From: Acidimicrobiia bacterium
GTDB lineage: Bacteria; Actinomycetota; Acidimicrobiia; Spongiisociales; UBA5794
Direction: 5' to 3'
Length of the DNA: 63,171 nucleotides
Assembly (NCBI GenBank): GCA_030599515.1
Contig: JAUVNV010000001.1
Span: 1-63,171, forward strand
Positions 2,457-61,364 of the stretch are shown here, piece after piece. Below the pieces are notes generated by a model. The model was not told where the DNA came from. It saw only the letters and a program-made list of their open reading frames with translations, and did no database searches. Both the position numbers and the translations under genes were made by a program. The first letter of the stretch is position 1; each line of letters starts with the position of its first letter.

Positions 2457-2870
2457 GTGGACACTGAGATCCTCTCGATCGAGACCGGATACCGGAGAGG
2501 CGTCTTCGATCTCACATCTGATGCAGCTCGATTCGTTGCAGGCAAGGGTTACGGCCTGCTCAACGTCTTCGTTCCACACGCAACCGCCGGTGTCGCGGTG
2601 ATCGAGACGGGGGCAGGGAGCGATGACGACCTGATGGATGCGATCGACGCGATGCTGCCGAGGGACGACCGTCGCTATCGTCACCGCCACGGATCTCCCG
2701 GACACGGAGCCGACCACGTCATGCCGGGATTCGTTGCCCCATCGACGATCGTACCGGTGACCGATGGTCGCCTCGCTCTGGGAACGTGGCAATCCATCGT
2801 CCTGGTAGACCCGAACGAAGACAACCCCGTCCGAAAGGTTCGTCTGAGCTTCCTGAGCAGTAGAAAGTAG
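2457..2870 (+). CDS. YjbQ/UPF0047 family protein (secondary thiamine-phosphate synthase-like)
   Basis: 137 aa with YjbQ-like length and a conserved His-rich core (RHRHGSPGHGADHV). The last residues SSRK and the TAG stop are encoded by the GTAGAAA repeat. Confidence 0.7.
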   Translation: MDTEILSIETGYRRGVFDLTSDAARFVAGKGYGLLNVFVPHATAGVAVIETGAGSDDDLMDAIDAMLPRDDRRYRHRHGSPGHGADHVMPGFVAPSTIVPVTDGRLALGTWQSIVLVDPNEDNPVRKVRLSFLSSRK

Positions 2871-2922
2871 AAAGTAGAAAGACCCCGGCAACGCTCGCGG
2901 GTCTTGTCTTTCTACTTTCTAC
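2860..2922. repeat. Heptad tract A. (GTAGAAA)x3 is paired with an inverted (CTTTCTA)x2 to form a long imperfect hairpin.
   Basis: GTAGAAA units lie at 2860-2880 and CTTTCTA units at 2908-2921. The inner stem is GACCC/GGGTC with a 5-nt bulge. The tract lies between yjbQ-like and rplY and is terminator-like. Confidence 0.8.
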
Positions 2923-3000
2923 CGACTCCCTCATGTGCTTTGTCCGTATCGTCCCCCTACACTCTGGGAACCCCCAAACGTTCTCCGAGGAGCCCTCATC

Positions 3001-3675
3001 ATGCAGCAAGAGACCTTGCGCGCTCTCAAGCGCACCGGATTCGGAAGCCGACCCGCACGCCGCATGCGTCGCGACGGCCAGATTCCAGCCGTCGTCTACG
3101 GCAAGGGACTCGACACACAACAGGTCGCCGTCCAGAGTCGCGCTCTGCACGCCGTCCTGCACACCGATGCCGGGATGAACGCACTCATCAACGTCGAGAT
3201 CGACGGAGGCAGCGACATTCTCACTGTTGCTCGAGAGATTCAGCGCGACCCGGTTCGGGGAGATATCACCCACCTCGACTTCATCATGGTCTCGCTCGAC
3301 GTGGAGATCGAGGCCGAAGTCGGCATCGAGTACGTCGGCACACCGATCGGCATCAAGGAGGAAGGCGGGTTCGTCGAGACGATGGAGACCTCGGTCACGA
3401 TCATGGCGCTCCCAGCGGCCATTCCTTCATCGATCACCTTCGACATCTCCGAACTCGGCATAGGCGACATCGTCAAGGTCTCGGACCTTCCGGAGATCGA
3501 GGGTGTGACGTACTCCACGGATGAGGACCGGCCGCTGTTGACCGTGCTGCTGCCCGCCATCGTTGAAGAAGAGGAGGTCCCGGAGGATCTGCTCGAGGGC
3601 GAAGAGGGCGAAGAAGTCGAAGAGGGCGAAGAAGTCGAAGAGGACGCAGCCAAAGCCGATACCGACAAAGGCTGA
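3001..3675 (+). CDS. rplY: 50S ribosomal protein L25 / general stress protein Ctc
   Basis: N-terminus carries RRMRRDGQIPAVVYGKG and the C-terminal tail is acidic and E-rich. GAGGAG lies 8 nt upstream of ATG 3001. The track ORF from 2935 is an over-extension. Confidence 0.88.
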   Translation: MQQETLRALKRTGFGSRPARRMRRDGQIPAVVYGKGLDTQQVAVQSRALHAVLHTDAGMNALINVEIDGGSDILTVAREIQRDPVRGDITHLDFIMVSLDVEIEAEVGIEYVGTPIGIKEEGGFVETMETSVTIMALPAAIPSSITFDISELGIGDIVKVSDLPEIEGVTYSTDEDRPLLTVLLPAIVEEEEVPEDLLEGEEGEEVEEGEEVEEDAAKADTDKG

Positions 3676-7460: not shown

Positions 7461-10400
7461 GTGGGCGCACCCCTCATCTCCGTGCTCGAACGCTTCGGCC
7501 GTGGTCTCATCCCGCCAATTCCAGGCCGGTTCGTGGTACCCCCAGCGCTGCGTTCCGTCGTCCTCGCCGGCATCGCAAGTCGCACGGGACGTAAGGTCAT
7601 CGGAGTCGTGCCGGGGGAGCGCGAGGCAGAGGATCTCGCTGAAGACGTCGCCCTGTTCGCAACGGAGGTGCATCACCTTCCCGCCTGGGAGACCTTGCCG
7701 TTCGAGCATGTCTCCCCGAGCATCTCAACGATGGCGGACCGTATCGTTGCCCGCCACGCATTGGCGAGCGACGGGCAGGCGATCATCGTCGCGTCGGTGA
7801 GGGCCGTCACACAGCGACTCAGTCCCACGCCCGCCGAGCCGATCCATCTCGTGGCCGGCACGGACAGCCCGTTCGATGACCTCGTCCGCCGCCTGGCCGC
7901 TCTCGGATATCGACGGACAGATCGGGTCGAGAGCCGGGGAGAGTTCGCCGTACGGGGAGGCATCGTCGACGTCTTCTCACCCCAAGCGCCGCAGCCCGTT
8001 CGAATCGACTTCTGGGGAGATACCGTCGAAGAGATCCGGCCGTTTGTCGTATCAACACAACGGTCCGAAGGCACGGTCGACGGGGTCGACGTGTTCCCCA
8101 CCGGCGAGGTGCTCATCTCGGACGAGATGCGAGTTCGTGCCGCTCAACTCCTCGTGGAGGCGCCATGGGGGGCATCAACCTGGGAGCGCATCTCGGAAGG
8201 AATCCGGTTCCAGGGCATCGAGTCGTGGCTGCCCTGGCTTGCGTCGCCGAGGACGATCATCGACGAGACCGATGCGATCGTCGTGCTGTTCGATCCCGTC
8301 CGGGCGAAGGATCGATGCCGTGATCTGATCGGGGAGGAGACGGACCTCGCCGTTGCGCTCTCCGGCACGTGGGGCAAGAACGGACCGGCGCCGGCGGCGC
8401 ATCCACCCCTCTACCTCTCGCTCAGCCCCGGCCCCGATGTCGACGTTCTCGAGGCACCACCCGCACCGGCATCGCCGGGGGACGACGGCTACGAGATGCG
8501 GGGATTCGGCGCGACGGTCGGTGATCCTCAATCGGTCGCATCTTCGATCACGGAGTGGGCCGGTCGCGGGATCGACGTGATCATCGCCATGGACGGCGCC
8601 TCAGCCGCGGAGCGCGTGTCCGGACTCCTTGCGGAATCGGGAGCAGGACTCACCGTTGTCGATCAGTTGATCTCCATCGAGTCGTCCGTCCTGCCCACCG
8701 GCATTCACCTCGGTTTCGTCTTCCCATCCATGCGAGTCGCCGTCGTCGGGGAGAGGGAGATCGCCGGGCGCCGCCGTGCGCATCGGACTGCCCGCCGGGG
8801 AAGGGGCGATCGAGCCGACGAGGCCTATCGGGATCTGAACCCGGGTGATTTCGTTGTCCACCACCATCACGGACTCGGTCGGTTCGAGGGTCTCGTGCAT
8901 CGCGACATCGCGGGAGCAGCACGGGACTACTTGCTCGTCGAGTATGCCGCGGGAGACCGGTTGTACGTGCCCACTGATCAGCTGGCCGCGATTCGTCGCT
9001 ACACCGGCGGCGAAACTCCTCGACTGTCTCGATTGGGCGGGACCGACTGGTCGCAGACGCGCAAGCGGGTCCGCAGGGAGATAGCCGTCGTCGCTGAGGC
9101 CGTTGTCGAGCTCCACCGAACGAGGGCCGCGGCCGCCGGTCACGCCTTCGACCCGGACACACCCTGGCAGGGGGAGTTCGAGGCGGCGTTCCCATACGAG
9201 GAGACGCCCGATCAGCTGACGGCGATCGCCGATGTGAAACGGGACATGGAGCTCGACGCCCCGATGGATCGGCTCGTCTTCGGCGATGTTGGGTTCGGGA
9301 AGACCGAAGTCGCGCTGCGTGCGATGTTCAAGGCTGTTCAGGATGGGAAGCAGGCGGCCATTCTCGTCCCGACCACTCTGCTGGCCCAGCAGCACTTCGT
9401 GACGCTCGAGGAGCGTTTCGCTCCGTTCCCGATCCGGGTGGAGGTGTTGAGTCGGTTCCTCACACCGCCGCAGCAGCGCAAGGTCGTCGCAGGCATCGCC
9501 GACGGGTCGGTCGATGCTGTCGTCGGCACCCACCGATTGCTCTCGACCGACGTGGAGTTCAACGATCTAGGCCTCTTGGTCGTCGACGAGGAGCAACGTT
9601 TCGGTGTTTCTGCGAAAGACAAATTGAAGGCGCTGCGGGCCTCGGTCGACGTACTCACTCTCACTGCGACCCCGATCCCGAGAACGCTTGAGATGGCGCT
9701 CACCGGAATCCGGGAGGTCAGCAAGATCCGGACCGCTCCTGAGGATCGGCACCCGATCTTGACCTATGTCGGTCCCAACGACGAGCAGGCCGTGTCTGCC
9801 GCGATCCGACGGGAGATGCTCCGGGAAGGCCAGGTGTTCTACGTTCACAACCGGATTCAGTCGATCGACCATGCCGTCGCTCGGCTTCGCGATCTCGTCC
9901 CGGACGCCCGGTACGCCGTCGCTCACGGACGGATGAGCGAAGGCCAACTCGAGCAGGTCATGTACGACTTCTGGAACCGTGATTATGACGTCCTGGTAGC
10001 GACAACGATCATCGAGTCCGGTCTCGATCTTCCCCAGGTGAACACGCTGATCGTCGAGCGGGCCGACCGGCTCGGTCTGGCTCAGCTCTATCAGTTGCGC
10101 GGCAGGGTCGGGCGATCTAGCCAACGGGCATACGCCTACTTGTTCCACCCGCCGGAGGAGAGGATCGGGGAGAACGCCTATCGCCGCCTCGAGGCCATCG
10201 GCGAGTTCTCCGACCTCGGGTCGGGATTCGAGTTGGCAATGCGGGATCTCGAGATTCGCGGAGCAGGAAGCATCCTCTCCGAGACCCAGTCTGGCCAGAT
10301 CGCGGCCGTCGGATTCGACCTCTACACGGAGCTCGTTGCGGAGGCCGTTCAGGAGCTGAAGGGTGAGCCGATCGAACGAGAAGAGGAGCACGAGGTCAGA

Positions 10401-10808
10401 ATCGATCTGCCGCTCGACGCCCGGCTCACCGATGCGTACGTTCCCGATGCCGACGGGCGCCTCGAGGCGTATCGCCGTCTCGCCGCAGCCACGACTGAGG
10501 ACGACGTCGACGACGTGGTCGCAGAGTGGGAAGACCGTTTTGGGTCGCTGCCGGTTGAGGCCGAAGAGCTGATCTCCGTCGCCCGTCTCCGGGTAGAGGC
10601 TTTGCGCGTGGGCCTCGACGAGATCGTTCAGGTGCGCGCCGAAGTCCGGATTTCGAAAGTCGATCTACGACCGTCACAGGAGGTGCGTCTCGAGCGTCTC
10701 CAGCATCGTGCGGTCCTGCGCGGATCGACGCTGTTCATCCCGGCCCCGAAGAGCGACGTGGCGAAGGTGTTGCTCCAGTTCCTGCAGACGATGTGGCCGG
10801 CGGAGTAG
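7461..10808 (+). CDS. mfd: Transcription-repair coupling factor
   Basis: 1115 aa. SF2 helicase motifs GDVGFGKTEVA and VVDEEQRFG, a CarD-like domain and a TRCF C-terminal domain. The TAG stop lies in the first unit of tract C. Confidence 0.95.
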   Translation: MGAPLISVLERFGRGLIPPIPGRFVVPPALRSVVLAGIASRTGRKVIGVVPGEREAEDLAEDVALFATEVHHLPAWETLPFEHVSPSISTMADRIVARHALASDGQAIIVASVRAVTQRLSPTPAEPIHLVAGTDSPFDDLVRRLAALGYRRTDRVESRGEFAVRGGIVDVFSPQAPQPVRIDFWGDTVEEIRPFVVSTQRSEGTVDGVDVFPTGEVLISDEMRVRAAQLLVEAPWGASTWERISEGIRFQGIESWLPWLASPRTIIDETDAIVVLFDPVRAKDRCRDLIGEETDLAVALSGTWGKNGPAPAAHPPLYLSLSPGPDVDVLEAPPAPASPGDDGYEMRGFGATVGDPQSVASSITEWAGRGIDVIIAMDGASAAERVSGLLAESGAGLTVVDQLISIESSVLPTGIHLGFVFPSMRVAVVGEREIAGRRRAHRTARRGRGDRADEAYRDLNPGDFVVHHHHGLGRFEGLVHRDIAGAARDYLLVEYAAGDRLYVPTDQLAAIRRYTGGETPRLSRLGGTDWSQTRKRVRREIAVVAEAVVELHRTRAAAAGHAFDPDTPWQGEFEAAFPYEETPDQLTAIADVKRDMELDAPMDRLVFGDVGFGKTEVALRAMFKAVQDGKQAAILVPTTLLAQQHFVTLEERFAPFPIRVEVLSRFLTPPQQRKVVAGIADGSVDAVVGTHRLLSTDVEFNDLGLLVVDEEQRFGVSAKDKLKALRASVDVLTLTATPIPRTLEMALTGIREVSKIRTAPEDRHPILTYVGPNDEQAVSAAIRREMLREGQVFYVHNRIQSIDHAVARLRDLVPDARYAVAHGRMSEGQLEQVMYDFWNRDYDVLVATTIIESGLDLPQVNTLIVERADRLGLAQLYQLRGRVGRSSQRAYAYLFHPPEERIGENAYRRLEAIGEFSDLGSGFELAMRDLEIRGAGSILSETQSGQIAAVGFDLYTELVAEAVQELKGEPIEREEEHEVRIDLPLDARLTDAYVPDADGRLEAYRRLAAATTEDDVDDVVAEWEDRFGSLPVEAEELISVARLRVEALRVGLDEIVQVRAEVRISKVDLRPSQEVRLERLQHRAVLRGSTLFIPAPKSDVAKVLLQFLQTMWPAE

Positions 10809-10912
10809 CGGAGTAGCGGAGTCGCGGAGTGGCGGAGTCGCGGAGTCGCGGAGGGACTCTTCGCCGACTACCGACTACCGACTACCGACTACCGACTACC
10901 GACTACCGACTA
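10801..10912. repeat. Tract C: (CGGAGTNG)x6-7 octamers followed by (CCGACTA)x7 heptamers
   Basis: Octamers lie at 10801-10856, one 7-nt linker CTCTTCG follows, then seven perfect CCGACTA units at 10864-10912. Confidence 0.9.
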
Positions 10913-10997: not shown

Positions 10998-12113
10998 ATG
11001 TTCTGGCAAACCCGTTCCGTGTCTGAGATGGAGGTAGAGCTCCTCGAGTTGGAGGAGAAGGTCTCTGAGATGAGGTGCCGTCAGTTGGTGCTGGTCAACG
11101 AGTTGGACAAGGTCAACATCGCCGCGTCGACCGGGTGTCGTTCCAGTGCGGAGTGGGTGGCGGCCCGTCTCGATCTCGGCCGCTCGACGGCGTCGGATCT
11201 GGTGTTTGCAGCCCGACGGTTGGCGAAGCATCGCCCAATCAACTTTCATCTGGCTGAGGGCCATATCAGCTTCGACCGGGCGGTTGCGACCATGCGTCTT
11301 GCCAAAGCGGGTGCGGACGAGGCGACGTTGAAGCATTCCGAGTCGTTGGATCTCGCCGGGGTGGGGCGGTTGACGTGCCGTCAGCGTCGTATCAGCCGTC
11401 GCGATGAGCGCGACGTGTTCGTGGAGCGTTTCGTGTCGGTTCAGCCGACGCTCGACGGTTCGTCGGGGCGTATATCTGCCCAGCTGCCCGGTATCGGGAT
11501 CCGCATCTTCGAGCAGGCGCTGTATGCACGCGCGGACGAGTTGCGTGCCTTGCCCGGCGGCGAAGCGTTCACTCGTGGTCAGCGTCAGGCCGACGCGCTG
11601 GTCGCACTGGCGATGGACTCCCTCGACCGCAACGGCGACATCGAAGGGTCGTCGGATTCTTCGGTGTCGATCTTCGTGGACCTCGACCGGGCGAACGGTA
11701 CCGGCGGTGAGATGGGTTGCGAGGTTGAGTACGGGCCGAGGGTCGGTCCGAACACGCTTGATGAGCTGCTGTGTACCGGCAGTGCGCAAATCATCGGGTT
11801 GGAGAAGGGCACACCCGTGGTCATCTCGCAGGCCGCGAGGGCGATCCCGCCCGCCGTCCGGCGTCTTGTGGCGGCCCGTGACGGCGGCTGCACCATTGCG
11901 GGCTGCACGTCTCGGTATCGGCTTGAGCCGCATCACATCAGGCTGCGTTCAAACGGCGGTTCCCACGACCCGGAGAATCTCACGACCCTGTGCTGGTTCC
12001 ACCACCACGTTGCGATCCACCAGCAGGGATTCCACATCGACCCCGACAGCCCGCCGCTGAGACGACACCTGATGCGGACACGAGCAGGTCCAGACCCACC
12101 GAGAATTGAGTAG
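10998..12113 (+). CDS. DUF222-type HNH endonuclease (13E12-repeat-family-like)
   Basis: 371 aa. The C-terminal HNH core is EPHHIRLRSNGGSHDPENLTTLCWFHHHVAIH. The N-terminal region resembles DUF222. The start could be 10998 or 11028. Confidence 0.8.
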   Translation: MFWQTRSVSEMEVELLELEEKVSEMRCRQLVLVNELDKVNIAASTGCRSSAEWVAARLDLGRSTASDLVFAARRLAKHRPINFHLAEGHISFDRAVATMRLAKAGADEATLKHSESLDLAGVGRLTCRQRRISRRDERDVFVERFVSVQPTLDGSSGRISAQLPGIGIRIFEQALYARADELRALPGGEAFTRGQRQADALVALAMDSLDRNGDIEGSSDSSVSIFVDLDRANGTGGEMGCEVEYGPRVGPNTLDELLCTGSAQIIGLEKGTPVVISQAARAIPPAVRRLVAARDGGCTIAGCTSRYRLEPHHIRLRSNGGSHDPENLTTLCWFHHHVAIHQQGFHIDPDSPPLRRHLMRTRAGPDPPRIE

Positions 12114-12198
12114 TCGAGTCCCCAGTCGCCAGTCCCCAATCGCCAGGCAGCCAGCAAGAGGAAACCTTCACCGGATACCGGATACCGGATACCGACTA
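12108..12198. repeat. Heptad tract D: 13 units including CCAGTCG CCAGTCC CCAATCG CCAGGCA GCCAGCA ... (CCGGATA)x3 CCGACTA
   Basis: The two repeat blocks are separated by exactly 14 nt, so a single 7-nt register is kept over 91 bp. The HNH TAG stop lies in the first unit. Confidence 0.75.
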
Positions 12199-17266: not shown

Positions 17267-17786
17267 CCGCAGCGTCGTTCAAGTGCAGATCGGCCGTCCT
17301 CCCCGCTCCGTGATCGACGTCGCTGCTCGCTGTCATCTGGGTCTCCCGATCGTCATCACAGTGCCTCCACTCCTCGACGACGACACACCGTTTCCGACTC
17401 TCTACTGGCTGACCTGCCCGCTCGCCGGCAAACGCATAGGAAGGGTCGAGGCCGGGGGAGGGGTTCGCCGTGCCGAACTGATGATCGCCGGCGATCCCAT
17501 CTTCTCCGACCGCTACGCCGCTGCTGCAGAGCGGTATCGGAAGTCCCGGGATGCGATGATTCCGGCCGGATTCGAAGGGCACCGGCCGACGGGTGGCGTC
17601 GGTGGTACCGGTTCGGGCGTCAAGTGTCTCCATGCCCACTACGCGGACACGGCCGCCGGCAATGACAACCCGGTCGGTGAGTGGACCGCGGCGCAGATCG
17701 AACCACTCGACTGTGAAGCCGTCTGTGTTGTCGCCGCCGAGGACGGAACCTCCGTCAAGAACCCGGACTGGATCGAGCCGCGATGA
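17259..17786 (+). CDS. DUF501 domain protein
   Basis: Sits in the conserved actinobacterial position between ftsB and ppx. Cys/His-containing core (LHAHYADTAAG). I chose the start at ATG 17259. Confidence 0.65.
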   Translation: MDDRSVVQVQIGRPPRSVIDVAARCHLGLPIVITVPPLLDDDTPFPTLYWLTCPLAGKRIGRVEAGGGVRRAELMIAGDPIFSDRYAAAAERYRKSRDAMIPAGFEGHRPTGGVGGTGSGVKCLHAHYADTAAGNDNPVGEWTAAQIEPLDCEAVCVVAAEDGTSVKNPDWIEPR

Positions 17787-18679
17787 TCGTCGGTGTTGTC
17801 GATATCGGAACCAACTCCATGCGTCTCCTGGTCACCGACGGTCGGAGAGAACTGCACCGCGAGGTCGAGGTCACGGCGCTTGGAGCCGGAGTGGATCGGA
17901 CGGGGGGGTTCGACGAAGAACGCGTTGTGGCGACGTTGGACGTTCTCGGACACTACGGAGCGATCATGGATCGTCTCGGCGTGGGGCGTCGTCGAGCCGT
18001 GGCAACGTCGGCGACGCGCGACGCCGGGGATGGAACCGAGTTCATGGAACGCGCCGCTCGAGTCCTGGGAGTAGCTCCTGAGGTCATCTCCGGAACAGAG
18101 GAAGCTGAGCTTTCGTACCTTGGCGCCACGGCTTCGATGGGCACACGAATGGCGACGGTCGTGATCGACATCGGAGGAGGATCGACCGAGTTCGTGTACG
18201 GGAACGGGACGGCGACTCACGCGACGAGCGTCGACATCGGTTCGGTCCGTCTCACGGAACGATCGCTCCCATCCCGACCGGCTTCGGAAACGGAACTGAA
18301 GGAGGCCCGTGCCGCCGCTGCGGAGGCATTCCAGGCACCGTCGCTCCCCGGATCTCCCGAGCGAGCCGTCGGTGTCGCCGGTTCGTTCACCAGTCTCGCG
18401 GCGATCGCCCTCGACCTCCTCGCATACGATCGGGACCGTGTGCACGGGTCGATCCTGACCATCGCCGTGATTCGCGGCCTGATCGATAGGATCGCAGTTC
18501 TGAGCGTGGACGAGACGACGACCGAATTCCCATCTCTCGATCCCAAACGCGCCCCGGTGATCCTCGCAGGAGCGATCCTCGCCGAAGGAGCCCTGACGGC
18601 GATTGCCGCCGACCAAGTGACGGTGAGCGAACACGACCTCCTCGACGGCCTGGCGCTGACAGTGCTCCGTAGCCGGTAG
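17783..18679 (+). CDS. ppx: Ppx/GppA family exopolyphosphatase
   Basis: 298 aa. ASKHA phosphate-1 motif VDIGTNSMRLLV, then DIGGGSTEF. ATGA overlap with DUF501. Confidence 0.88.
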   Translation: MIVGVVDIGTNSMRLLVTDGRRELHREVEVTALGAGVDRTGGFDEERVVATLDVLGHYGAIMDRLGVGRRRAVATSATRDAGDGTEFMERAARVLGVAPEVISGTEEAELSYLGATASMGTRMATVVIDIGGGSTEFVYGNGTATHATSVDIGSVRLTERSLPSRPASETELKEARAAAAEAFQAPSLPGSPERAVGVAGSFTSLAAIALDLLAYDRDRVHGSILTIAVIRGLIDRIAVLSVDETTTEFPSLDPKRAPVILAGAILAEGALTAIAADQVTVSEHDLLDGLALTVLRSR

Positions 18680-18715
18680 CCCGTGCTTCCGTCTTGCTAC
18701 TTGCTGCTTTCTTCT
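18667..18715. repeat. Heptad tract E (degenerate): CCGTAGC CGGTAGC CCGTGCT TCCGTCT TGCTACT TGCTGCT TTCTTCT
   Basis: Seven units in 7-nt register. The tract contains the ppx TAG stop (18677-18679) and, on the minus strand, the TAG stop of the EF-G-like gene (18697-18699). Confidence 0.5.
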
Positions 18716-20784
18716 TCGAGTTCCTTCACTACCTGGTCCGCCATGTGTGACGGCATCTCCTGGTAGTGGTCGTGGGCGGCGCTGAACTGACCCCACCCCT
18801 GGGTCAAGGAGCGCAGATCGATCGCGTAGTTCATGATCTCCGATGTCGGCACCAGCGCTGTGATCAGCTGTCGCCCACCGGCTGCCGCTTCGGTTCCCTG
18901 CAACTGGCCACGGCGCGACGACAGGTCACCCATCACGTCGCCCTGGTAGTCGGCGGGAACCGTGACTTTCAGTCGGGAAATCGGCTCGAGCATGACAGGC
19001 CCTGCCTGCTCCATGGCGCTCTTGAATCCGAGGCGTCCGGCCATCTTGAAGCTCATCTCCGACGAGTCGACCGAGTGGTACTTCCCGTCGTAGACGGCAA
19101 CCTGGACGTCGACTACGGGAAAACCGCGAGTCCCTCCGTCTGCCATGGTCTCCCTCACGCCTTTCTCGACCGCCGGGATGAACTGACGTGGGATGGATCC
19201 CCCTTTGATCTCGTCGACGAACTCGAACCCGGTACCACCCGGTAGCGGACTGACTCGAAGGAAACAAACGCCGTACTGCCCGTGCCCGCCGGTCTGCTTC
19301 TTGTATTTCCCTTCAGCCTGTGCCGAGCGCGAGATCGTCTCGCGGTAGGGCACCTTCGCCTTCGTGGTCTCAACGGCGACGCCGAACTTGCGCTGCAAAC
19401 GCTCGAGGGTGATCGTGAGGTGGGTCTCGCCCATGCCCCACAGCAGTGTCTGCTTCGTTTCGCTGTTGCGTTCGAGTAGGAGAGCCGGATCCTCGGCAAG
19501 GATGCGGCGAAGGGCGTTCGCCAGTTTGTCCTCGTCAGCCTGGGTCTTCGCCGTCACCGCCGTGGAGAGAACGGGTTCGGGTCGGTCGACGGGAGGAAGC
19601 GTGACCGGCTTGTTCTTGGGAGCGAGTGTGTCACCGGTATCCGTGTCGGACAACTTGGCGACGGCGACGATGTCTCCCGCAGGGGCAGATGCCACGAGTT
19701 CGGTCTCCTTGCCGATCATCGTTGCGATCTTCGCCAGCTTCTCATCCGATCCGGAGCGGCTGTTCGAGAGCGTCGTCTCGGGCTTGAGTGTGCCCGATCG
19801 GACCCGCATCAGCGAGATCTGTCCGACGTACGGGTCGGCGATCGTCTTGAACACGAACGCCAGGGGATCACCCGACACATCGGAGACGACTTCGACGGTC
19901 TGGTCGCCGGCCTTGACCACCATCGGGGGACGATCTGTGGGTGCCGGGCCGAGTTCGGTGATGAAATCGGCGAGCCGATCGACGGCGATTGGCCCGGTGG
20001 CGGAACCACACACAACCGGGAACACGGTTGCTTCGGCGATCCCCTTCGCCATCGTGTGCTCGAGTTCGGGTACGGAAGGAATGTCACCGTCGAGGTATCG
20101 CTCGAGCATCTCGTCATCGGCTACAACGATGCCTTCGACGAGGTTGTCGTGGATCTCGTGTTCGCGACTCGACATCTCTTCCGGGATCTCCACCTCTTCT
20201 GCCTGGCCCGAGTCGTAGATGTAGGCCTTGTCACGGAAGAGGTCGGCGACGCCGTGGAAGGCGTCGTGTTCACCGATCGGGAGTTCGATGGGGGCGATGC
20301 CTGCACCGAATCGATCACGAAGGTGTTCGAGGGTCCGGTCGAACGATGCCCGTTCCTTGTCGAGTTTGTTGATGAACACCATGCGGGGCACACGGAGGGT
20401 ATCGGCGACACTCCAGGCGTACTCGGTCTGAACTTCGACGCCGTCGACCGCGGACACGACGAAGATGGCGAGATCAGAGACGCGCAGTGCGGCGTGGACG
20501 TCGCCGACGAAGTCCGCGTAGCCGGGGGTATCGATCAGGTTGATCTTGAAGCCCTTCCACTCGAACGGTGCAAGGGCGAGAGAGAGCGACATTCCACGAG
20601 CGTGCTCCTCGGGATCGAAGTCGGTCACTGTGGTGCCGTCCTCGATCGTCCCGAGGCGTTGGATCGTCCCTGCGCGGTAGAGGAGCGCCTCGGCGAGCGT
20701 GGTCTTCCCGGCGCCAGAGTGTCCGACGAGAGCTACGTTCCGAATCTTGTCCGGTGGGAACACCTTCACTGCGTGAGCCTCCAT
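18697..20784 (-). CDS. Elongation factor G paralog (EF-G-like GTPase)
   Basis: 695 aa with G motifs GHSGAGKTT, DTPGYADF and NKLD. Not in the str operon context, so probably an EF-G2-type paralog. Confidence 0.85.
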   Translation of the reverse strand: MEAHAVKVFPPDKIRNVALVGHSGAGKTTLAEALLYRAGTIQRLGTIEDGTTVTDFDPEEHARGMSLSLALAPFEWKGFKINLIDTPGYADFVGDVHAALRVSDLAIFVVSAVDGVEVQTEYAWSVADTLRVPRMVFINKLDKERASFDRTLEHLRDRFGAGIAPIELPIGEHDAFHGVADLFRDKAYIYDSGQAEEVEIPEEMSSREHEIHDNLVEGIVVADDEMLERYLDGDIPSVPELEHTMAKGIAEATVFPVVCGSATGPIAVDRLADFITELGPAPTDRPPMVVKAGDQTVEVVSDVSGDPLAFVFKTIADPYVGQISLMRVRSGTLKPETTLSNSRSGSDEKLAKIATMIGKETELVASAPAGDIVAVAKLSDTDTGDTLAPKNKPVTLPPVDRPEPVLSTAVTAKTQADEDKLANALRRILAEDPALLLERNSETKQTLLWGMGETHLTITLERLQRKFGVAVETTKAKVPYRETISRSAQAEGKYKKQTGGHGQYGVCFLRVSPLPGGTGFEFVDEIKGGSIPRQFIPAVEKGVRETMADGGTRGFPVVDVQVAVYDGKYHSVDSSEMSFKMAGRLGFKSAMEQAGPVMLEPISRLKVTVPADYQGDVMGDLSSRRGQLQGTEAAAGGRQLITALVPTSEIMNYAIDLRSLTQGWGQFSAAHDHYQEMPSHMADQVVKELEEESSK

Positions 20785-20987: not shown

Positions 20988-21006
20988 CAGAGCCTCAAGA
21001 GGCTCG

Positions 21007-21048
21007 GTAATGAGTACTGCGTATTGAGTACTCGGTACGACTACGGCT
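21007..21048. repeat. Heptad tract F: GTAATGA GTACTGC GTATTGA GTACTCG GTACGAC TACGGCT
   Basis: Six units in register directly after tRNA-Leu. The tract contains the minus-strand TAG stop (21041-21043) of the PLDc_N/SHOCT gene. Confidence 0.7.
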
Positions 21049-21388
21049 GCGCGAGCCCGAAGATGGCGGACTTCTCGGCGGCGAACTCCCTGTCGGTGAT
21101 CGAGCCGGACTCGTGGTTCGCTTCGAGACGGTGTATCTCGTCGATCGCTCTCCGCGTCGCAGTCGGGTCGGTGTCACGCAATCCCTTCACCGGAGCGGGT
21201 GGGCGTACGAAGGCGTAGATGAGCACTCCGATGTAGGGGATGACGATCACGGCCGCGGACCAGATGCCCTTCCAACCGATCGAGAGATCGCTGCGCCTGA
21301 CGATGATGTGGAACAACACCAACGCCCAGATCACAGCCAGCGGAATCAGAACGATTGCGACGGCGACGATCTGCCCGGTGTCGCTCAT
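21041..21388 (-). CDS. Small membrane protein, PLDc_N-like N-terminus plus SHOCT-like C-terminus
   Basis: 115 aa. Two TM helices (WSAAVIVIPYIGVLIYAF) and a C-terminal SITDREFAAEKSAIF motif typical of SHOCT. Confidence 0.65.
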   Translation of the reverse strand: MSDTGQIVAVAIVLIPLAVIWALVLFHIIVRRSDLSIGWKGIWSAAVIVIPYIGVLIYAFVRPPAPVKGLRDTDPTATRRAIDEIHRLEANHESGSITDREFAAEKSAIFGLAQP

Positions 21389-32098: not shown

Positions 32099-32113
32099 GC
32101 CGCCTCCGGCGGC

Positions 32114-42031: not shown

Positions 42032-42052
42032 TCCTTCAGTCCCAGGTCCTTC
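41997..42052. repeat. Heptad tract M: GTTGGCT GCTGGCC GTTGGCT GTCGGCT CCTTCAC TCCTTCA GTCCCAG GTCCTTC
   Basis: Eight units in register spanning the junction of two coding regions (M3 peptidase C-terminus and GH57 N-terminus). Confidence 0.55.
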
Positions 42053-43983
42053 AGGTACGCATCGGCGGAAGGCTCCCGGCCGAGGAAGGCGCGGAGGTGC
42101 TCGATGGCGTCACGGGAGTAGCCCCGTGCGAGAACCTCGCTGCGGTATCGGGCTCCGACCTCGGGGCTGAGAACGCCCTCGTCAGAGAAGATCGAGAACA
42201 TGTCGTCTCCGTAGACCTTGGCCCACTGGTAGCCGTAGTAGCCGGCGTCGTATCCACCCATGAGATGTCCGAACGACGCTGCGAAGTGCGTGCCGTCGTG
42301 ATAGGGGATCAGTGTCAGAGCGAAAGCGTTCCGGGTGGCCTTCTCGAGGTCGACGTCGCCGTGGCCCGTGTGGATCGCAAGGTCGAACGTGCCGAGGAAG
42401 GCTTGTCGCAGCGTGGTGAGCGCCGTGTTCTGATCGCGCGCGGCCACGAGTCGTTCGACGAGATCCGATGGGATCATATCATCCGTCTCGTAGTGGCGGG
42501 CGAAGCGTTGGAGCACCTCCGGTTCCCACATCCAGTGCTCCATGATCTGCGACGGCGCCTCGACGAAGTCCCACTCGGTGTCGTATCCGGCGAACCGGGG
42601 GTGATCGACCTCGGTCAAGCAGAAGTGCAAGACGTGCCCGAATTCATGGAACAAGGTGAGTGCCTCATCGTGCTTCAGCAGCGAAGGGGATCCGGGCCCC
42701 GGTTTCGTGAAGTTCGCGACGATGGCGGCGACCGGCTTCCGATATTCACCGCTCTCTTGTCTCAAGCCTCCCGTTATCGGGAAGCACGCGGCGTGTCCGA
42801 ACTTGCCATCGCGCGGGAAGAGATCGGCGTAGAAGAAGGCGATCGCCTCCTCCGAGCCTCGGTTCCGAATCTCGTACAGCTTGACGTCATCGTGCCATGC
42901 GCCGGTCTCTTCGACCTCGCGGTACTCGAGGCCGAAGACATCGCCGGTGATCGCGAACATCCCCTCAAGCACCGTCTCCAAGGGGAAGTACTCGGCGACC
43001 TCGTTCTGGTCGATGCCGTAGTCACGCCTGCGTTGCATCGTGTGGTAGTACATCCAGTCCCATGACTGGATCGGCTCGTCCCCAAGGTCGAGTGATGCGA
43101 GATCCTGGAGTGCTGCGAGTTCCTCGACACCGCGGCTGGTGAGACCGGGAATGATCGAGGCGTACAACTCGTCGACCGCCTCCGGGTCGGCCATTTTGAC
43201 CTCCATGGAGTACCTGGCCCACGTGTCGTACCCGAGAAGGTCGGCGATCTCCTCGCGAATCGAGACGGCTTCGGCGAGGAGAGGTGTGTTCTCCTCAGCA
43301 GAGCGAGTCCAGAACTTGAATTGCATCTTCCGACGCAGATCGCGATTCTCCGCCTCCTCGATGAACGGGATGTAGTCCGGGTAGTTCATCGAGACCCGGA
43401 AGGTTGCTTCAGAGGCGCCCGGCTTGAGACGCTCGACGTAGGCGTCCGGCAGTCCGGCGAGGTCGTCCCGCGTCATGTCGATGCCATCGTCCCACTCGTC
43501 GAGGTTGCTGTTGAATGCAACCTGAAGCTCGATGAGCCTCTGCTTGAGTTCGCGAAGACGGTTCCGATCCGCACCGTCGAGGTCGTGCCCGGCGCGGCGG
43601 AGGTCGCGGAGCCAGAACTCGAGGTTGCGCGCCTCGAGGCCGTCGAGGGCACGAGCGTCATCCGTCACGGCATACGAGCGGATCGCTGCGGCGAGATCGG
43701 AGCGCATGATGAGGTCCGAACCCCACTTGGCCATCCGTTCCTCCGCGGCGACTCCAGCCGCGCGCACGTCGTCATCGGCATGGACCCTCGCCATGAACGC
43801 TCCCCGTCCCGAGGCGTCTGCGACGATCACGCCGGCGCGGTCCAGTGGTGCCAACGTGTTCGCATAGGTTCGCGACTCGTCGGCCCCGACCACGGCTTCG
43901 ACTGCAGTATCGGCTTGTGCGATGGCAGCCTCGGTGATTTCGGTGACGGAATCGGCGGTAACGGCGGTGTAGTCGTAGAGCAT
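42028..43983 (-). CDS. M3 family zinc metallopeptidase (peptidyl-dipeptidase/oligopeptidase-like)
   Basis: 651 aa. HEFGH zincin motif (LFHEFGHVLH) with a downstream Glu. Confidence 0.88.
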   Translation of the reverse strand: MLYDYTAVTADSVTEITEAAIAQADTAVEAVVGADESRTYANTLAPLDRAGVIVADASGRGAFMARVHADDDVRAAGVAAEERMAKWGSDLIMRSDLAAAIRSYAVTDDARALDGLEARNLEFWLRDLRRAGHDLDGADRNRLRELKQRLIELQVAFNSNLDEWDDGIDMTRDDLAGLPDAYVERLKPGASEATFRVSMNYPDYIPFIEEAENRDLRRKMQFKFWTRSAEENTPLLAEAVSIREEIADLLGYDTWARYSMEVKMADPEAVDELYASIIPGLTSRGVEELAALQDLASLDLGDEPIQSWDWMYYHTMQRRRDYGIDQNEVAEYFPLETVLEGMFAITGDVFGLEYREVEETGAWHDDVKLYEIRNRGSEEAIAFFYADLFPRDGKFGHAACFPITGGLRQESGEYRKPVAAIVANFTKPGPGSPSLLKHDEALTLFHEFGHVLHFCLTEVDHPRFAGYDTEWDFVEAPSQIMEHWMWEPEVLQRFARHYETDDMIPSDLVERLVAARDQNTALTTLRQAFLGTFDLAIHTGHGDVDLEKATRNAFALTLIPYHDGTHFAASFGHLMGGYDAGYYGYQWAKVYGDDMFSIFSDEGVLSPEVGARYRSEVLARGYSRDAIEHLRAFLGREPSADAYLKDLGLKE

Positions 43984-52767: not shown

Positions 52768-53442
52768 ATGGCTGATGCACCGACGGAACGCACGCGGGTC
52801 AGGCGCGCCAAGGACAAAGCACGGCATGACCGGGAGATCGTGAACGAGATCTTCGACGAGGCGTTGATCTGCCACGTCGGGTTCGTCGACGACGGTTCAC
52901 CGTTCGTGATCCCGACGATCCACGCCAGGGTCGGTGATGTCCTGTATTTCCACGGCTCTCCCGCGAGTCGCATGCTGCGTCTGATGAAGAACGGCGCCGA
53001 AATCACGATCACCGCAACGCTTCTCGACGGCATCGTCGCTGCACGCTCGGTCTTCCACCACTCGATGCACTACCGGTCCGCAATGATCTTCGGCACGGCG
53101 CGGATCGTCGACGCACGGGAAGAACGCATGATCGCGCTCGAGGCAATCTCGAACGCTGCGCTTCCGGGTCGCTGGGACGAAGCGAGGCTTCCGTCACGCA
53201 ACGAGGACAAGGGCACGCTCGTTGTCGCCGTTGCGATCGAGGAGTACTCGGCCAAGGTGAGCAACAAGGACGTCGGGGACGAAGATGACGACTACGACCT
53301 CCCCATCTGGGCCGGCGTCATCCCCCTGTCGATAGTGGCAGGCTCTCCTGTGCCCGATCACCGTCTGTTGGACGGCGTCGAGCTACCGGATTCGGTGAAG
53401 CAATTCGTGGCCGCCTTCGGCGGCGTAGTCGGTAGTCCGTAG
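52768..53442 (+). CDS. Pyridoxamine 5'-phosphate oxidase-like FMN-binding protein
   Basis: Split-barrel family pattern (CHVGFVDDGSPFVIPT ... YFHGS). The tail VVGSP and the TAG stop are encoded by tract N. Confidence 0.7.
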   Translation: MADAPTERTRVRRAKDKARHDREIVNEIFDEALICHVGFVDDGSPFVIPTIHARVGDVLYFHGSPASRMLRLMKNGAEITITATLLDGIVAARSVFHHSMHYRSAMIFGTARIVDAREERMIALEAISNAALPGRWDEARLPSRNEDKGTLVVAVAIEEYSAKVSNKDVGDEDDDYDLPIWAGVIPLSIVAGSPVPDHRLLDGVELPDSVKQFVAAFGGVVGSP

Positions 53443-53543
53443 TCCGGAGCGGGGTCCGTATCCTGTAGTCCGAGGTCCCTCTTCTTGCTGGCGGCTTGTA
53501 GCTTGCAGCTTGTAGCCCTTGTCTTTCTACTTTCTACTTGCTG
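53425..53543. repeat. Heptad tract N: 17 units (GTAGTCG GTAGTCC GTAGTCC ... CTTGTAG CTTGCAG CTTGTAG CCCTTGT CTTTCTA CTTTCTA CTTGCTG)
   Basis: 119 bp equals 17 x 7 with no register break. Its reverse complement matches tract O module by module. Confidence 0.9.
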
Positions 53544-54324
53544 AATTCACCGAATCGCGCCACTTCAACCACGGGCCTACCGGCTCCAGATCCAGGTCTG
53601 GTCCCGTCACGCCGATCGTGAACTCCGCGACGCCGAGCGTTCGGAAGGCATCTGCCTCATCGAGTTGCGCGGGTTTCACACCGATGGATCGTTCGATGGT
53701 CGAGGCGTCGCGACCAACTCTGGCACCCCACTCGTCGAGTACCTTCGACTTGTGGGCGATCGTTTCGAGATCACCGAAGGTGTGCCACACGTCGGCGTAC
53801 TCCGCAACGATGCGCAGTGTCACCTTCTCACCGCCGCCGCCGATCAGGATCGGGATGTGGCGGGTCGGTGGAGGATCGAGCCGTTCGAGCCGGTCCACGA
53901 TCCGGGGCATGGCAGCGTCGAGATCGCGAAGGCGACTGCCCTTCGTTCCGAAGTCGTAGCCGTACTCGTCGTAGTCCTTCTCGAACCAACCGGACCCGAT
54001 TCCGAGGATCAGTCGACCGCCGGAGATGTGATCGACGGTTCTTGCCATGTCGGCGAGGAGCTCCGGATTGCGATACGAGTTGCAGGTGACGAGTGCGCCG
54101 AAGTGGATTCGTTCCGTCTGCTCGGCCCAGGCCCCGAGCATCGTCCAGCACTCGAAGTGCTTCCCCACGTTGGGATCCGGGTCTCCGCCGTAGAGGGGGT
54201 AGAAGTGATCCCAGTTGTAGACGACGTCGACACCCATCTCCTCGGCTTCCATGACGGCGTCGCGGATGCCGGCGTAGTCGCTGTGCTGGGGATGGATCTG
54301 GACGGCGATTCGGACCGGTTCCAT
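53527..54324 (-). CDS. Luciferase-like monooxygenase (LLM) class F420-dependent oxidoreductase
   Basis: Start at ATG 54324 (MEPVRIAVQIHPQH). LLM TIM-barrel pattern (ILGIGSGW). The tail SASRK and the TAG stop are encoded by the TAGAAAG units of tract N. Confidence 0.8.
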   Translation of the reverse strand: MEPVRIAVQIHPQHSDYAGIRDAVMEAEEMGVDVVYNWDHFYPLYGGDPDPNVGKHFECWTMLGAWAEQTERIHFGALVTCNSYRNPELLADMARTVDHISGGRLILGIGSGWFEKDYDEYGYDFGTKGSRLRDLDAAMPRIVDRLERLDPPPTRHIPILIGGGGEKVTLRIVAEYADVWHTFGDLETIAHKSKVLDEWGARVGRDASTIERSIGVKPAQLDEADAFRTLGVAEFTIGVTGPDLDLEPVGPWLKWRDSVNSASRK

Positions 54325-57919: not shown

Positions 57920-57936
57920 CGGCTGCTCCGCAGCCG
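57920..57936 (+). terminator. Hairpin CGGCTGC-TCC-GCAGCCG directly after the nucS stop
   Basis: 7-bp GC stem that starts 1 nt after the TGA. Confidence 0.5.
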
Positions 57937-58124
<188 letters not shown>

Positions 58125-58125
58125 C

Positions 58126-58142
58126 ACCGGCCGAAGGCCGGT
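58126..58142 (-). terminator. Hairpin ACCGGCC-GAA-GGCCGGT at the sigma-factor stop
   Basis: 7-bp GC stem overlapping the minus-strand TGA (58142-58144). Confidence 0.5.
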
Positions 58143-59071: not shown

Positions 59072-59172
59072 GTGCTCCTCCTCCCCCTCTCTTTGGAGAG
59101 AGCCGCTTGAACTTATCACGCATGAGCGCCATCGGCAATCGTTCATTACGCTTTCCTGACCGATCGGCAACC

Positions 59173-60675
59173 ATGACCCAACTCGCGCGCATCTCCGCTC
59201 TTGCGATGGCGCTCCTCTCCATCGCCGCGGCCGGCTGCACCAGTCCGGCTCCTCTCGACGCGTCCGCACTTCGCCCACCCGAGGTCGGGCCCCCGACGAT
59301 CGAAGTCGTGGTCCTTGCCGGCGATGATCTGAGCGTGCTCGATGCAGACATCGCTGTAGAGGGGGCTTCGATGTTCGAGACCGAAGAAGGAGTGCCGGCA
59401 TTCATCTGGCCGCAGGATTCGACGACCATCGAGGTGTCTGCTCCAGGATTCGAATCGCAGAGCGAGGTTGCCGATGATCCGCCCAGAGAGGATCGGATCG
59501 AGTTTCGCCTCGAGCCGGTCGTGCTTTCGGGTCGCGTCTCGACTCACCGGGGTATCGCACTGCCCGGTGTCGAAGTCACGCTCGGCGGCGGACACGACGT
59601 GACGAACGACGACGGTCTTTTCGAGATCGTGCGGGCGGAACCGGGGGAGCTTTCTCTCACCCGTCCGACCTGGCAGGATGCGCGTGTCCCGTGGGATGGT
59701 TCGACGAACGAGATCGACACGACGATGGAGCCCCTCGTGGTCCACGGCGTGCGAGTCAGCGGACCCGCGGCAGGTGATCCCCAGCACTGGCAACAACTGC
59801 TTGCCATGGCCGACTCGACCGGTATCAACGCTTTCATCGTGGATGTCAAGGACGAGTTCGGTACGGTGTTCCACGACACGACGGTCGACGGCGCCCACGA
59901 GGCATCTGCGGTGACACTCCAGTACGACCTGTCGGAGATCATCGCAGACATGGATGATCACGATCTCTACAAGATCGCTCGGATCGTCGCATTCCAGGAC
60001 ACGCCGATGGCGAGGACCGAACCCGATCACGCGGTCCTGCAAGCAGGGGGGTCAGATCTGTGGCGCACAGCGAACGGCGACGCGTGGATGGACCCGACCG
60101 ATCCGGTGGCCTTTGAGTATCCCGTAGCGCTTGCAGAAGAGGCTTGTCGTGCCGGCTTCGACGAGATCCAGTTCGACTTCGCATCCTTTCCGTTCGGCGG
60201 CGACGTGTCGACCGCCGTATTCGACGATGAGTACACGGAGGAGATTCGTGTCGCCTCGATTCAGGCGTTCCTGAAGCGCGCCTACCTGGTACTGAGCCCG
60301 CGATGCGGCGTCGCAGCGAGTGTGCTGGGCATCACGCTCGAGTCCGGAACCGATGAGGGCGTCGGTCAGCGTCCGGGCCTCATGTCGCGCACGATCGATG
60401 TTCTGAGCCCGATGCTGTACTCGACGAACTACGGGTCGGGATGGAAGGGCTACGCCAATCCCAACGACCACGCGGGCGACATCGTCGAGTCCGCTCTAGT
60501 GAGCGGCCTTTCACGGCTCGAAGGATTCGCCTACTACCGGCCGTGGCTCCAAACGTGGACGATCCCGGTCTTCGACATTCGGGGAATCCAGAGGAGGGTC
60601 GACGATCGGGTGACTGGGTGGATGCTCTGGTCGAACGCCGCGTCCTATCCGGCCGAGCTGTTGCCTCCGAAGTGA
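59173..60675 (+). CDS. Lipoprotein, putative glycoside-hydrolase-like TIM barrel (DUF4015-like) with an N-terminal CarboxypepD_reg-like domain
   Basis: Lipobox IAAAGCTS with start at ATG 59173. The core INAFIVDVKDEFG ... FDEIQFDF resembles the DUF4015/GHL families. Confidence 0.55.
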   Translation: MTQLARISALAMALLSIAAAGCTSPAPLDASALRPPEVGPPTIEVVVLAGDDLSVLDADIAVEGASMFETEEGVPAFIWPQDSTTIEVSAPGFESQSEVADDPPREDRIEFRLEPVVLSGRVSTHRGIALPGVEVTLGGGHDVTNDDGLFEIVRAEPGELSLTRPTWQDARVPWDGSTNEIDTTMEPLVVHGVRVSGPAAGDPQHWQQLLAMADSTGINAFIVDVKDEFGTVFHDTTVDGAHEASAVTLQYDLSEIIADMDDHDLYKIARIVAFQDTPMARTEPDHAVLQAGGSDLWRTANGDAWMDPTDPVAFEYPVALAEEACRAGFDEIQFDFASFPFGGDVSTAVFDDEYTEEIRVASIQAFLKRAYLVLSPRCGVAASVLGITLESGTDEGVGQRPGLMSRTIDVLSPMLYSTNYGSGWKGYANPNDHAGDIVESALVSGLSRLEGFAYYRPWLQTWTIPVFDIRGIQRRVDDRVTGWMLWSNAASYPAELLPPK

Positions 60676-61364
60676 GTGCCGTCGATGAACTCGCGCTGCT
60701 GGCGGAAGAGATCGCCGGCTGCCGCCGTTGCCCGCGCCTCGTTGAGTGGCGCGAGAGGGTTGCCGCAGACAAGCGGGCGGCGTTCGTCGACGATGAGTAC
60801 TGGGGGAGGCCCGTTCCGGGTTTCGGCGATCCGCAAGCTGGAGTCGTTGTCGTCGGCCTTGCTCCCGCGGCCCATGGCGCCAATCGGACCGGGCGGATGT
60901 TCACTGGCGACCGCAGCGGCGACTGGCTCTACCGGGCCATGTGGCGGGCCGGTCTCGCGAGTCAGCCCGAGTCATCCGGTCGTGATGACGGACTGACGCT
61001 CTTCGGGGCGTGGGTAACGGCACCCGTGCGGTGCGCTCCACCGCAGAACAAGCCCACGGTCGACGAGAGAGACACGTGTGCGGCGTGGTTCGGACGGGAA
61101 CTCGACATCCTCGAGCCGGTCGTCCTGGTGGCCCTCGGTGACTTCGCCTACCGATCGATCTGGCGATACCTCGGTGCTGCGGGCCACGACCTGCCGAGGC
61201 CGAGACCGCGATTCGCCTTCGGTCTCGAGGTCGCCGTTCCGAATGGCCCGGTGATCCTGGCAAGCTTCCACCCCAGCCAACAGAACACCTTCACAGGGAG
61301 ACTGACGGAAGACATGTTGGATGCCGTGTTCGCCAGAGCGAAGGTACTGAGTACTGAGTACTGA
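60672..61364 (+). CDS. Uracil-DNA glycosylase, family 5 (UdgB-type), Fe-S containing
   Basis: Motifs CRRCPRL, GLAPAAHGANRTGRMFTGD and SFHPSQQN. GTG start with a GTGA overlap. The tail VLSTEY and the TGA stop are encoded by tract P. Confidence 0.82.
   Translation: MSAVDELALLAEEIAGCRRCPRLVEWRERVAADKRAAFVDDEYWGRPVPGFGDPQAGVVVVGLAPAAHGANRTGRMFTGDRSGDWLYRAMWRAGLASQPESSGRDDGLTLFGAWVTAPVRCAPPQNKPTVDERDTCAAWFGRELDILEPVVLVALGDFAYRSIWRYLGAAGHDLPRPRPRFAFGLEVAVPNGPVILASFHPSQQNTFTGRLTEDMLDAVFARAKVLSTEY

Follow-up and report, generated by a model that had tools for sequence, protein, structure and literature searches.

Why should unrelated proteins of one bacterium end in the same few residues, taken from tandem repeats that also provide their stop codons? 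The question is raised by a stretch of 63,171 nucleotides from an Acidimicrobiia bacterium (hereafter the window, meaning the whole of this stretch; contig C76 of the set), in which several coding sequences run into arrays of short, mostly seven-nucleotide units. The host is an uncultured actinobacterium of marine type; its genome is a metagenome-assembled genome (MAG) of 2.35 Mb in 272 contigs with 64% G+C, and its closest named relatives are uncultured Acidimicrobiia/Acidimicrobiaceae MAGs. A preliminary description of the window had quoted such tails for a YjbQ-like protein, a luciferase-like monooxygenase (LLM), a GGDEF-EAL protein, a PNPOx-like protein and UdgB; with gene ends re-read from the sequence, all of these tails and their coordinates prove correct. 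One of the two origins that it considered, namely that the tracts had replaced native termini, fits the orthologues of YjbQ, LLM, the PNPOx-like protein, an EF-G-like protein and UdgB, whereas Mfd and an M3 peptidase keep their native ends. The data presented here indicate that the tails are probably a passive by-product of the intergenic microsatellites of the host's genus, arising from the position of the arrays, the arithmetic of their period and their orientation.

Gene ends coded by repeats

Tandem arrays were located in the window and in the whole genome with Tandem Repeats Finder (TRF), genes were called with a codon-usage scorer of our own, and all gene ends of the window were printed. 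The names given to window genes are backed by Pfam, and tails are written here up to the last residue before the stop codon. Orthologues came from 40 relatives for five genes, from five syntenic blocks and from one 605-kb congener contig. Their ends were read by extending tblastn alignments, a procedure that passes stops inside an alignment, and artefact rows were left out (e.g. L036-L038 and L043 in the YjbQ set, L067 and L083 in the PNPOx-like set).

Judged against these orthologous sequences, the tails of five proteins are non-ancestral. The YjbQ/UPF0047 gene (2457-2870, plus strand; PF01894, 6e-24, with the domain ending at residue 130 of 137) takes its last four codons and its stop from the repeat (AGC AGT AGA AAG TAG at 2856-2870, read as SSRK), and the stop lies in an (AGTAGAA)3.3 array that TRF calls on the plus strand at 2859-2881. 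The protein ends in SFLSSRK, two residues beyond the RLSF(I/L)xG of its relatives across the order. The inverted partner of the array, (CTTTCTA)2, stands at 2908-2922, across a GC hairpin.

A similar end is found in the LLM gene (53527-54324, minus strand; PF00296), which closes with TCA GCA AGT AGA AAG TAG (53527-53544), read as SASRK, and has its stop in a (TAGAAAG) array at 53523-53539. Congeners end in WRDSVNGxx, with an array starting exactly at their TAG; here the protein runs on to SVNSASRK and is again two residues longer. The start at 54690 assumed in the preliminary description, for a product of 387 aa, is probably over-extended at the 5' side: the Pfam domain begins at residue 126, and our own caller agrees with the Joint Genome Institute (JGI) calls on conspecific contigs on a start at 54324 and a product of 265 aa.

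The PNPOx-like gene (Pyridox_ox_2, PF12900; 52768-53442, plus strand) bears the tail GVVGSP (53422-53442) and has its stop in a (GTAGTCS) array at 53424-53472. Its congeners end in SVRRFVGE, 5-8 residues short of the QFVAAFGGVVGSP found here; the open reading frame (ORF), QFV-AAFGG-VVGSP, crosses a hairpin, GCCGCC-TTC-GGCGGC (53410-53424), and then enters the array. The hairpin that it reads through, GCCGCCTTCGGCGGC, stands elsewhere in the window directly downstream of a stop. In the EF-G-like GTPase gene (18690-20784, minus strand; Pfam EF-G domains), the protein ends in ELEEESSK, while three congeners end three residues earlier, in ELEEE, and one congener has SSK too. The UDG-family (UdgB-like) gene (60618-61364, plus strand; PF03167) closes with VLSTEY-TGA (61344-61364), its TGA lying in a (GTACTGA)4.6 array at 61344-61375 that is followed by a hairpin at 61376-61390. 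Its sequence is conserved up to RARxL, after which each congener has a repeat-coded end peculiar to itself (LVDQ, SSGVAE, LSTEY). In most of the cases compared, the tails stand in place of a short native end that is not conserved; the interpretation given in the preliminary description is partly supported.

Other genes meet an array without change to their ends. The mfd (TRCF) gene (7461-10808, plus strand; Pfam TRCF, CarD_TRCF_RID and UvrB_inter) ends in GCGGAG-TAG-CGGAGTAG, and it is with this TAG, as first unit, that a period-8 (GCGGAGTN) array (10800-10853) opens; the protein retains its native MWPAE, and a congener with no array at this place likewise ends in WPAE. In the sister species, G018, Mfd is 8 codons longer (SSSSGVAE), an extension of three 8-nt units. 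The M3 peptidase gene (42028-43983, minus strand; PF01432) has its stop at 42028-42030 within a two-copy TGAAGGAG repeat (42023-42042, TRF), keeps the native GLKE-TGA and shares GLKE with G018. For these two genes both residues and stop are native and the array begins at the stop; their tails are thus ancestral and look like the repeat by coincidence, as the preliminary description had allowed. The comparison with orthologues that it had put forward as a check has a divided outcome: a repeat-free congener has the identical end for Mfd, and orthologues end differently for YjbQ, LLM and the PNPOx-like protein.

The GGDEF-EAL gene (21481-23928, plus strand; PF00990 and PF00563, with the EAL domain ending 22 residues before the stop) has a tail that comparison shows to be old. 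Its last six codons and TAG (TCG GTA GTC GGT AGT CGG TAG, read as SVVGSR, 23908-23928) are three TCGGTAG units, the start of an array at 23908-23961. A tail of the form SVV(G/R)S(R/P/S) is common to about eight species; in congeners further removed the tail is unrelated, though much the same in length. The two units that code for the tail co-vary, being alike within a species and different between species (GTAGTCG, GTAGTCC, GTAGTTC, GCAGTCG), a sequence pattern that points to slippage-driven homogenisation, that is, to concerted evolution of a repeat within a coding tail.

Shared tails and the arithmetic of the period

Genome-wide, the C-terminal residues SRK occur 12 times with 0.17 expected, GSR 12 times with 0.73 expected and TEY four times with 0.18 expected; among longer tails, VESRK recurs seven times and VVGSR four times. 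These tails follow from the unit that is entered: (GTAGAAA)n yields VESRK, xSRK or an immediate stop, (GTAGTCG)n yields VVGSR or GSR, and (GTACTGA)n yields VLSTEY or TEY. Since seven cannot be divided by three, units with a TAG or TGA stop every frame within 21 nt. Arrays reach only the last 0-8 codons of ORFs. A few unit types dominate, and unit and entry frame together set the tail; unrelated proteins thus come to share their ends. Slippage further 3' in the array leaves the tail unaffected, because the sequence is periodic. A stop-bearing unit can act in this way only if the strand with the stop is the sense strand, which is nearly always the case. The three entry frames of GTAGAAA are used 9:7:5 in our own tally of the listed tails, which does not differ from uniform use; among the GTAGAAA tails neither a preferred frame nor a favoured tail was found.

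Arrays across the genome

Seven is by far the commonest tandem period in the 2.35 Mb, with 504 arrays called by TRF, whereas period 8 has 93 and period 6 has 116; about 20 of the period-7 arrays lie in the window. Their units fall into 127 families genome-wide, many units being specific to one locus, and the families with most arrays are AAAGTAG (60), AGTCGGT (39), ATCCGGT (36), ACTGAGT (28) and ACTCGGT (26). Of the 504 arrays, 222 have a unit with a stop trinucleotide on at least one strand.

The arrays are concentrated just behind genes. After merging (n=527), 346 are purely intergenic, 71 extend over a stop and only 3 over a called start. The share of positions taken up by arrays stands at about 0.2% within coding DNA and stays below 0.4% upstream of -24 nt; it climbs over the last six codons, amounts to 3.4% at the stop and has its maximum, 7.8%, at +18 to +30 nt; arrays start most frequently 1-7 nt past the stop, and they are depleted in the 20 nt ahead of starts. 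With the gene counts redone on confident genes only (n=1791), the whole stop lies within a period-7 array in 51 genes (2.8%). TAG accounts for 42 of these 51 stops (82%), compared with 27% elsewhere (odds ratio 12, p = 1e-15).

How far an array intrudes into a gene goes along with what its unit contains. Of the 55 arrays whose start precedes the last base of the stop by at least 4 nt, 47 carry stops on the sense strand; among those that start between -3 and +21 nt the figure is 45 of 141, with 77 of the 141 free of stops on both strands. Every unit type adjoins gene ends, and the intruders are mainly stop-bearing. As stop-less units adjoin gene ends equally often, there is no sign in these counts that tracts are targeted to gene ends to supply stops or tails.

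Congeners have about 1.8 period-7 arrays per 10 kb, and the remaining genera of the order about 0.6; because the density falls outside the genus, the heptamer-rich state looks like a trait of the host's genus. The genome-wide list also holds seven arrays that lie wholly inside called ORFs and end at most 10 codons before the stop.

Orientation of the arrays

The arrays obey a strict rule of orientation. Where a spacer is convergent, GTA-type units of the gene-proximal array run in the sense of that gene in a ratio of 44:4. In tandem spacers, the median distance past the stop is 8 nt for arrays of the sense type and 57 nt for those of the inverse type. The rule also emerges independently of gene calls, since adjacent arrays, read on either strand, come as GTA-type then TAC-type in a ratio of 42:0, as AG-rich then CT-rich in 56:0 and as purine-rich then pyrimidine-rich in 23:0. 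Restated per mRNA, AG-type units, which are purine-type and rich in stops, stand after the ORF, and CT-type units, which are pyrimidine-type and free of stops, stand before the start of the next. Stop-less unit families follow the same polarity, and in tandem spacers stop-bearing units are antisense 54 times and sense 34 times. The two arms of a pair belong to the same unit family, or are complementary, in only 9 of 74 array pairs; the rule is one of polarity and not of hairpin formation, because the arms are so rarely complementary. A hairpin, a terminator or a miniature inverted-repeat transposable element formed by complementary arms was rejected on the same count.

In the window, examples of the polarity are found at 2859-2922, 53424-53539 and 57932-58125. 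The last of these belongs to a long composite array (57932-58142; identified from TRF, sequence and Pfam) between the convergent nucS and sigma-70 genes, which has GTA-type units on the plus strand in its left half and on the minus strand in its right half. Both nucS and the sigma-70 gene have a small hairpin beside their own stop. Small GC-rich hairpins (GCCGCC-N3-GGCGGC and ACCGGCC-GAA-GGCCGGT) lie between stop and array, or between arrays, at 32099-32113, 53410-53424, 61376-61390, 58126-58142 and 2882-2905, and resemble terminators that have no U-tract; the one at 53410-53424 is now within the PNPOx-like ORF and translated as AAFGG.

Turnover among relatives

The length of the C-terminus is unstable specifically where a gene has its stop in an array. 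In the 13 array-stop genes of the window, it differs from that of five congeners in 69% of comparisons (mean 2.5 aa), and in the remaining window genes in 16% (mean 0.36 aa); in the genome-wide comparison with G018, it differs in 13 of 19 array-stop pairs and in 42 of 270 others (p = 1.3e-6). At orthologous sites among congeners, arrays have been gained, have been lost or have changed their unit.

Within the species, three contigs that stem from other metagenomes carry the tails unchanged. One conspecific contig (L122) is near-identical except for one missing GCTTGCA unit in the mid-spacer array at 53494-53516, which is a single case. Between species the vocabulary itself shifts: on the G018 contig compared (C2), 57 period-8 arrays exceed 40 period-7 arrays, the dominant unit of this species is the 8-mer GAGTAGCG, and VAE forms the end of five unrelated proteins, namely Mfd, UdgB, the PNPOx-like protein and two more. 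To judge from these tails, each species seems to have its own favoured unit and hence its own 'house' tail.

Other array-adjacent stops of the window

The preliminary description had placed the stops of seven further genes in repeat units. Those of mfd, the DUF222-HNH gene, menD and the PLDc_N-like gene do lie inside or at the edge of the first unit. The stops of ppx and the EF-G-like gene are likewise within repeats, albeit in two-unit mini-arrays for which TRF makes no call, and the nitrilase stop is part of a degenerate unit and falls about 4 nt outside the array call.

Specifically, in the DUF222-HNH gene (11028-12146 including the array, plus strand; PF02720 and PF01844) units of (AGTCSCC)n run from the stop (12111-12113) onward, with the TRF array at 12117-12146. 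The Ppx/GppA gene (17783-18684, plus strand; PF02541) has its TAG (18677-18679) in a GTAGCCG-GTAGCCC mini-array, and that of the EF-G-like gene lies in AGCAAGT-AGCAAGA. The 'menD' gene, which codes for a thiamine pyrophosphate (TPP) enzyme (32114-33833 including the array, minus strand; Pfam TPP_enzyme_N and TPP_enzyme_C), has a TGA (32139-32141) that makes up the first unit of a GTACTSA array at 32114-32146 (TRF), and its C-terminal length varies from -2 to +4 among congeners; the hairpin at 32099-32113 comes after the TAG of a convergent menF-like gene. In the CN-hydrolase (nitrilase-like) gene (37131-38075 including the array, minus strand; PF00795), the TAA (37155-37157) belongs to a degenerate GTAACTGA unit beside the (GAGTACC/GAGTACT) array at 37131-37150, and the syntenic blocks searched yielded no orthologue. 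The small PLDc_N-like gene (20998-21388, minus strand; a weak Pfam match below cut-off) has a TAG (21041-21043) that immediately adjoins a degenerate GTACYSA array.

Competing explanations

What, then, accounts for the tails? The reading that we favour, and consider likely to be right, is that they are a passive by-product of the genus's microsatellites. It starts from what is observed, namely the positions and counts of the tails, the rule of orientation, the non-ancestral ends and the turnover among congeners, and it adds to these an order of mutational events at the boundary between gene and array that we infer. The model builds on the fact that the arrays lie against the 3' ends of genes, and that their period of 7 (sometimes 8) lets three units with a TAG or TGA stop any frame. 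The array beside a gene end is almost always in the sense orientation for GTA/AG-type units (GTAGAAA, GTAGTCG, GTACTGA), which is the strand that carries the stop. The boundary could then shift through an indel in the last unconstrained codons, through loss of the native stop or through growth of the array, and the ribosome would read at most about 6-8 repeat codons before halting at the first in-frame stop of a unit. The two additional residues of both YjbQ and LLM are consistent with, although no proof of, a 1-nt deletion before a heptamer array, for which (7-1)/3 = 2 codons are predicted. The tails are read as neutral because units with no stop are found beside gene ends equally often, and because units with one are no rarer in antisense than in sense.

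Several points weigh against this account. The length of the GGDEF-EAL tail has stayed constant in about eight species, so this tail could be tolerated or it could be useful. The strict rule of orientation lacks an explanation, which leaves room for a functional reason why stop strands are sense strands, and the selective neutrality of the tails is something that we infer. Finally, the gene ends come from a crude gene caller of our own; it agreed with JGI calls wherever the two were compared, with identical ends on conspecific contigs for products of 265 aa and 224 aa.

The rival that survives best, though we regard it as unlikely, holds that arrays have been selected as three-frame translational backstops that limit stop loss, read-through and late frameshifts. 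Chance stops are rare in a genome of 64% G+C, roughly one per 38 codons by composition, and the 44:4 bias of GTA-type units at gene ends towards sense as well as the strong enrichment of TAG among in-array stops are what selection of this kind would produce. Individual genes also behave accordingly: in the PNPOx-like gene the native stop has been lost and the array catches the ORF after 10 extra codons, and the extension of Mfd in G018 comes to exactly 8 codons, the length of three 8-nt units. However, over half of the arrays that abut a stop are stop-free on both strands and still follow the same rule, and in tandem spacers the stop-bearing units that face no ORF are no rarer than those in sense (54 vs 34). 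Xanthomonas GGGAATC arrays, moreover, show the same geometry with no stop in the unit, and congeners gain, lose and swap arrays at the same sites. Fail-safe stops were rejected as the main explanation on the grounds of orientation and unit content, stop-less units behaving just like the others. A wider form of the idea, which we find unlikely too and would rank a little lower, traces the polarity itself to translational selection, with arrays maintained genome-wide as pads that stop any frame behind genes and as inert filler ahead of them. If true, heptamer arrays would be a genome-wide device in a stop-poor, high-G+C genome and not junk microsatellites.

Improbable, in our view, is an origin of the arrays as ready-made inverted modules that a mobile or recombination process inserted at or beside stops (for instance at TAG or TA), with the tails left as scars. 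Such a process would account for a unit vocabulary common to hundreds of loci, for array pairs that always stand head-to-head in the same order (42:0 and 56:0) and for arrays that start exactly at the native TAG in many species. It is at odds with arms that share a unit family in so few pairs (9 of 74), with 127 unit families, many of them locus-specific, and with orthologous sites that carry different units which co-vary within the array, as slippage predicts. No associated transposase turned up, although none was searched for.

There is very little to be said for the notion that the tails are functional peptide tags serving stability, localisation or degradation. It draws on the identical tails of unrelated proteins, such as the seven cases of VESRK and the four of VVGSR, and on the preserved length of the GGDEF-EAL tail; yet unit and frame dictate the tails and all three frames occur, the proteins that bear them (Mfd, UDG, EF-G-like, YjbQ, peptidase and others) have no common theme, one and the same protein carries different tails in congeners, and the tails amount to 0-6 residues beyond the domain ends. 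Just as implausible as a general account is that the tails are ancestral and only happen to resemble repeats, since this is true of a subset (Mfd with WPAE and the M3 peptidase with GLKE, alike in congeners) but is refuted for YjbQ, LLM, the PNPOx-like protein, the EF-G-like protein and UdgB, whose orthologues end differently and mostly 2-8 residues earlier, and is at odds with SRK and GSR each occurring 12 times where fewer than one is expected.

Implications

For annotation, the results mean that about 3% of gene ends in this genus of Acidimicrobiia are set by microsatellites, that C-terminal differences between orthologues at array-stop genes should be treated as repeat noise and not as adaptation, and that shared tails such as SRK, GSR and VAE are not to be taken as motifs. 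For evolution, they provide a clear natural example of non-triplet repeats that buffer stop loss and late frameshifts, with any extension capped at a few residues. They reveal no new mechanism of gene expression, since such tails are to be expected from repeats of a kind already known. The results sharpen the question why heptamer arrays in several phyla adjoin stop codons in a fixed orientation.

Comparison with known systems

Repeats that decide where translation ends are familiar from the phase-variable contingency genes of Haemophilus and Neisseria, in which a simple sequence repeat lies in the promoter or near the start of the ORF and, as its copy number changes, turns the protein on and off by shifting the frame of most of it or by altering promoter spacing. 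As in those genes, a non-triplet repeat overlaps the ORF and affects where translation ends; unlike there, the repeat lies in the last 0-6 codons, and the first in-frame stop is independent of copy number. No work specific to Acidimicrobiia was found on these repeats in the literature.

A second precedent is provided by the forward TAACTGA direct repeats of marine Beggiatoaceae, which have stops in all three frames and in which 13 ORFs end (MacGregor 2015, PMC4679880). The arrays described here resemble them as intergenic tandem heptamers with three-frame stops, a likeness confined to the families that bear TAG or TGA (222 of 504 arrays and 47 of 55 intruders). The Beggiatoaceae repeats consist of a single unit, lie mostly just upstream of start codons and have been proposed as the site of a post-transcriptional regulator (PMC4679880). 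By contrast, the present arrays comprise 127 unit families, adjoin stop codons (median 8 nt for the sense type), stay clear of the 20 nt ahead of starts and form inverted pairs; TAACTGA is absent from the top 40 unit families of the host genome. Shared C-terminal tails, as found here, were not described in Beggiatoaceae.

The geometry comes closest to that of the GGGAATC and GGGGA(C/T)T heptamers of Xanthomonas and Nostoc, which lie about 28 nt from the upstream ORF and about 160 nt from the downstream one (Rehm et al. 2015, PMC4692102). They stand on the coding strand, just past or overlapping the stop, and often in convergent inverted pairs (PMC4692102). Both features recur here, where the stop-proximal arrays on the coding strand pair as GTA-type then TAC-type without exception. 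Those heptamers, however, are G-rich and quadruplex-forming and have a stop-free unit that can neither donate stops in every frame nor give rise to a set of shared tails, whereas the present arrays have no G-tracts; not one of the top ten unit families of the host genome contains a run of three Gs.

More generally, heptamers are in excess among long simple sequence repeats with units of 5-11 nt, which are mainly non-coding (Mrazek, Guo and Shah 2007, as summarised in PMC4679880). According to the same summary, whole-unit slippage is their presumed driver and non-triplet periods are excluded from coding DNA. The excess of period 7, the mostly non-coding position and the change of copy number by a whole unit between strains (here a single case) all agree with that picture. 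As represented there, the survey, which predates Acidimicrobiia MAGs, did not deal with rules of orientation, with the donation of stops or with C-terminal tails. Taken together, three-frame stops (TAACTGA, PMC4679880), stop-adjoining geometry (GGGAATC, PMC4692102) and an excess of heptamers were already known, and the present analysis adds to them the identical tails found genome-wide, the evidence from orthologues for replacement and turnover, a species-specific vocabulary of units and the exception-free polarity of adjacent arrays.

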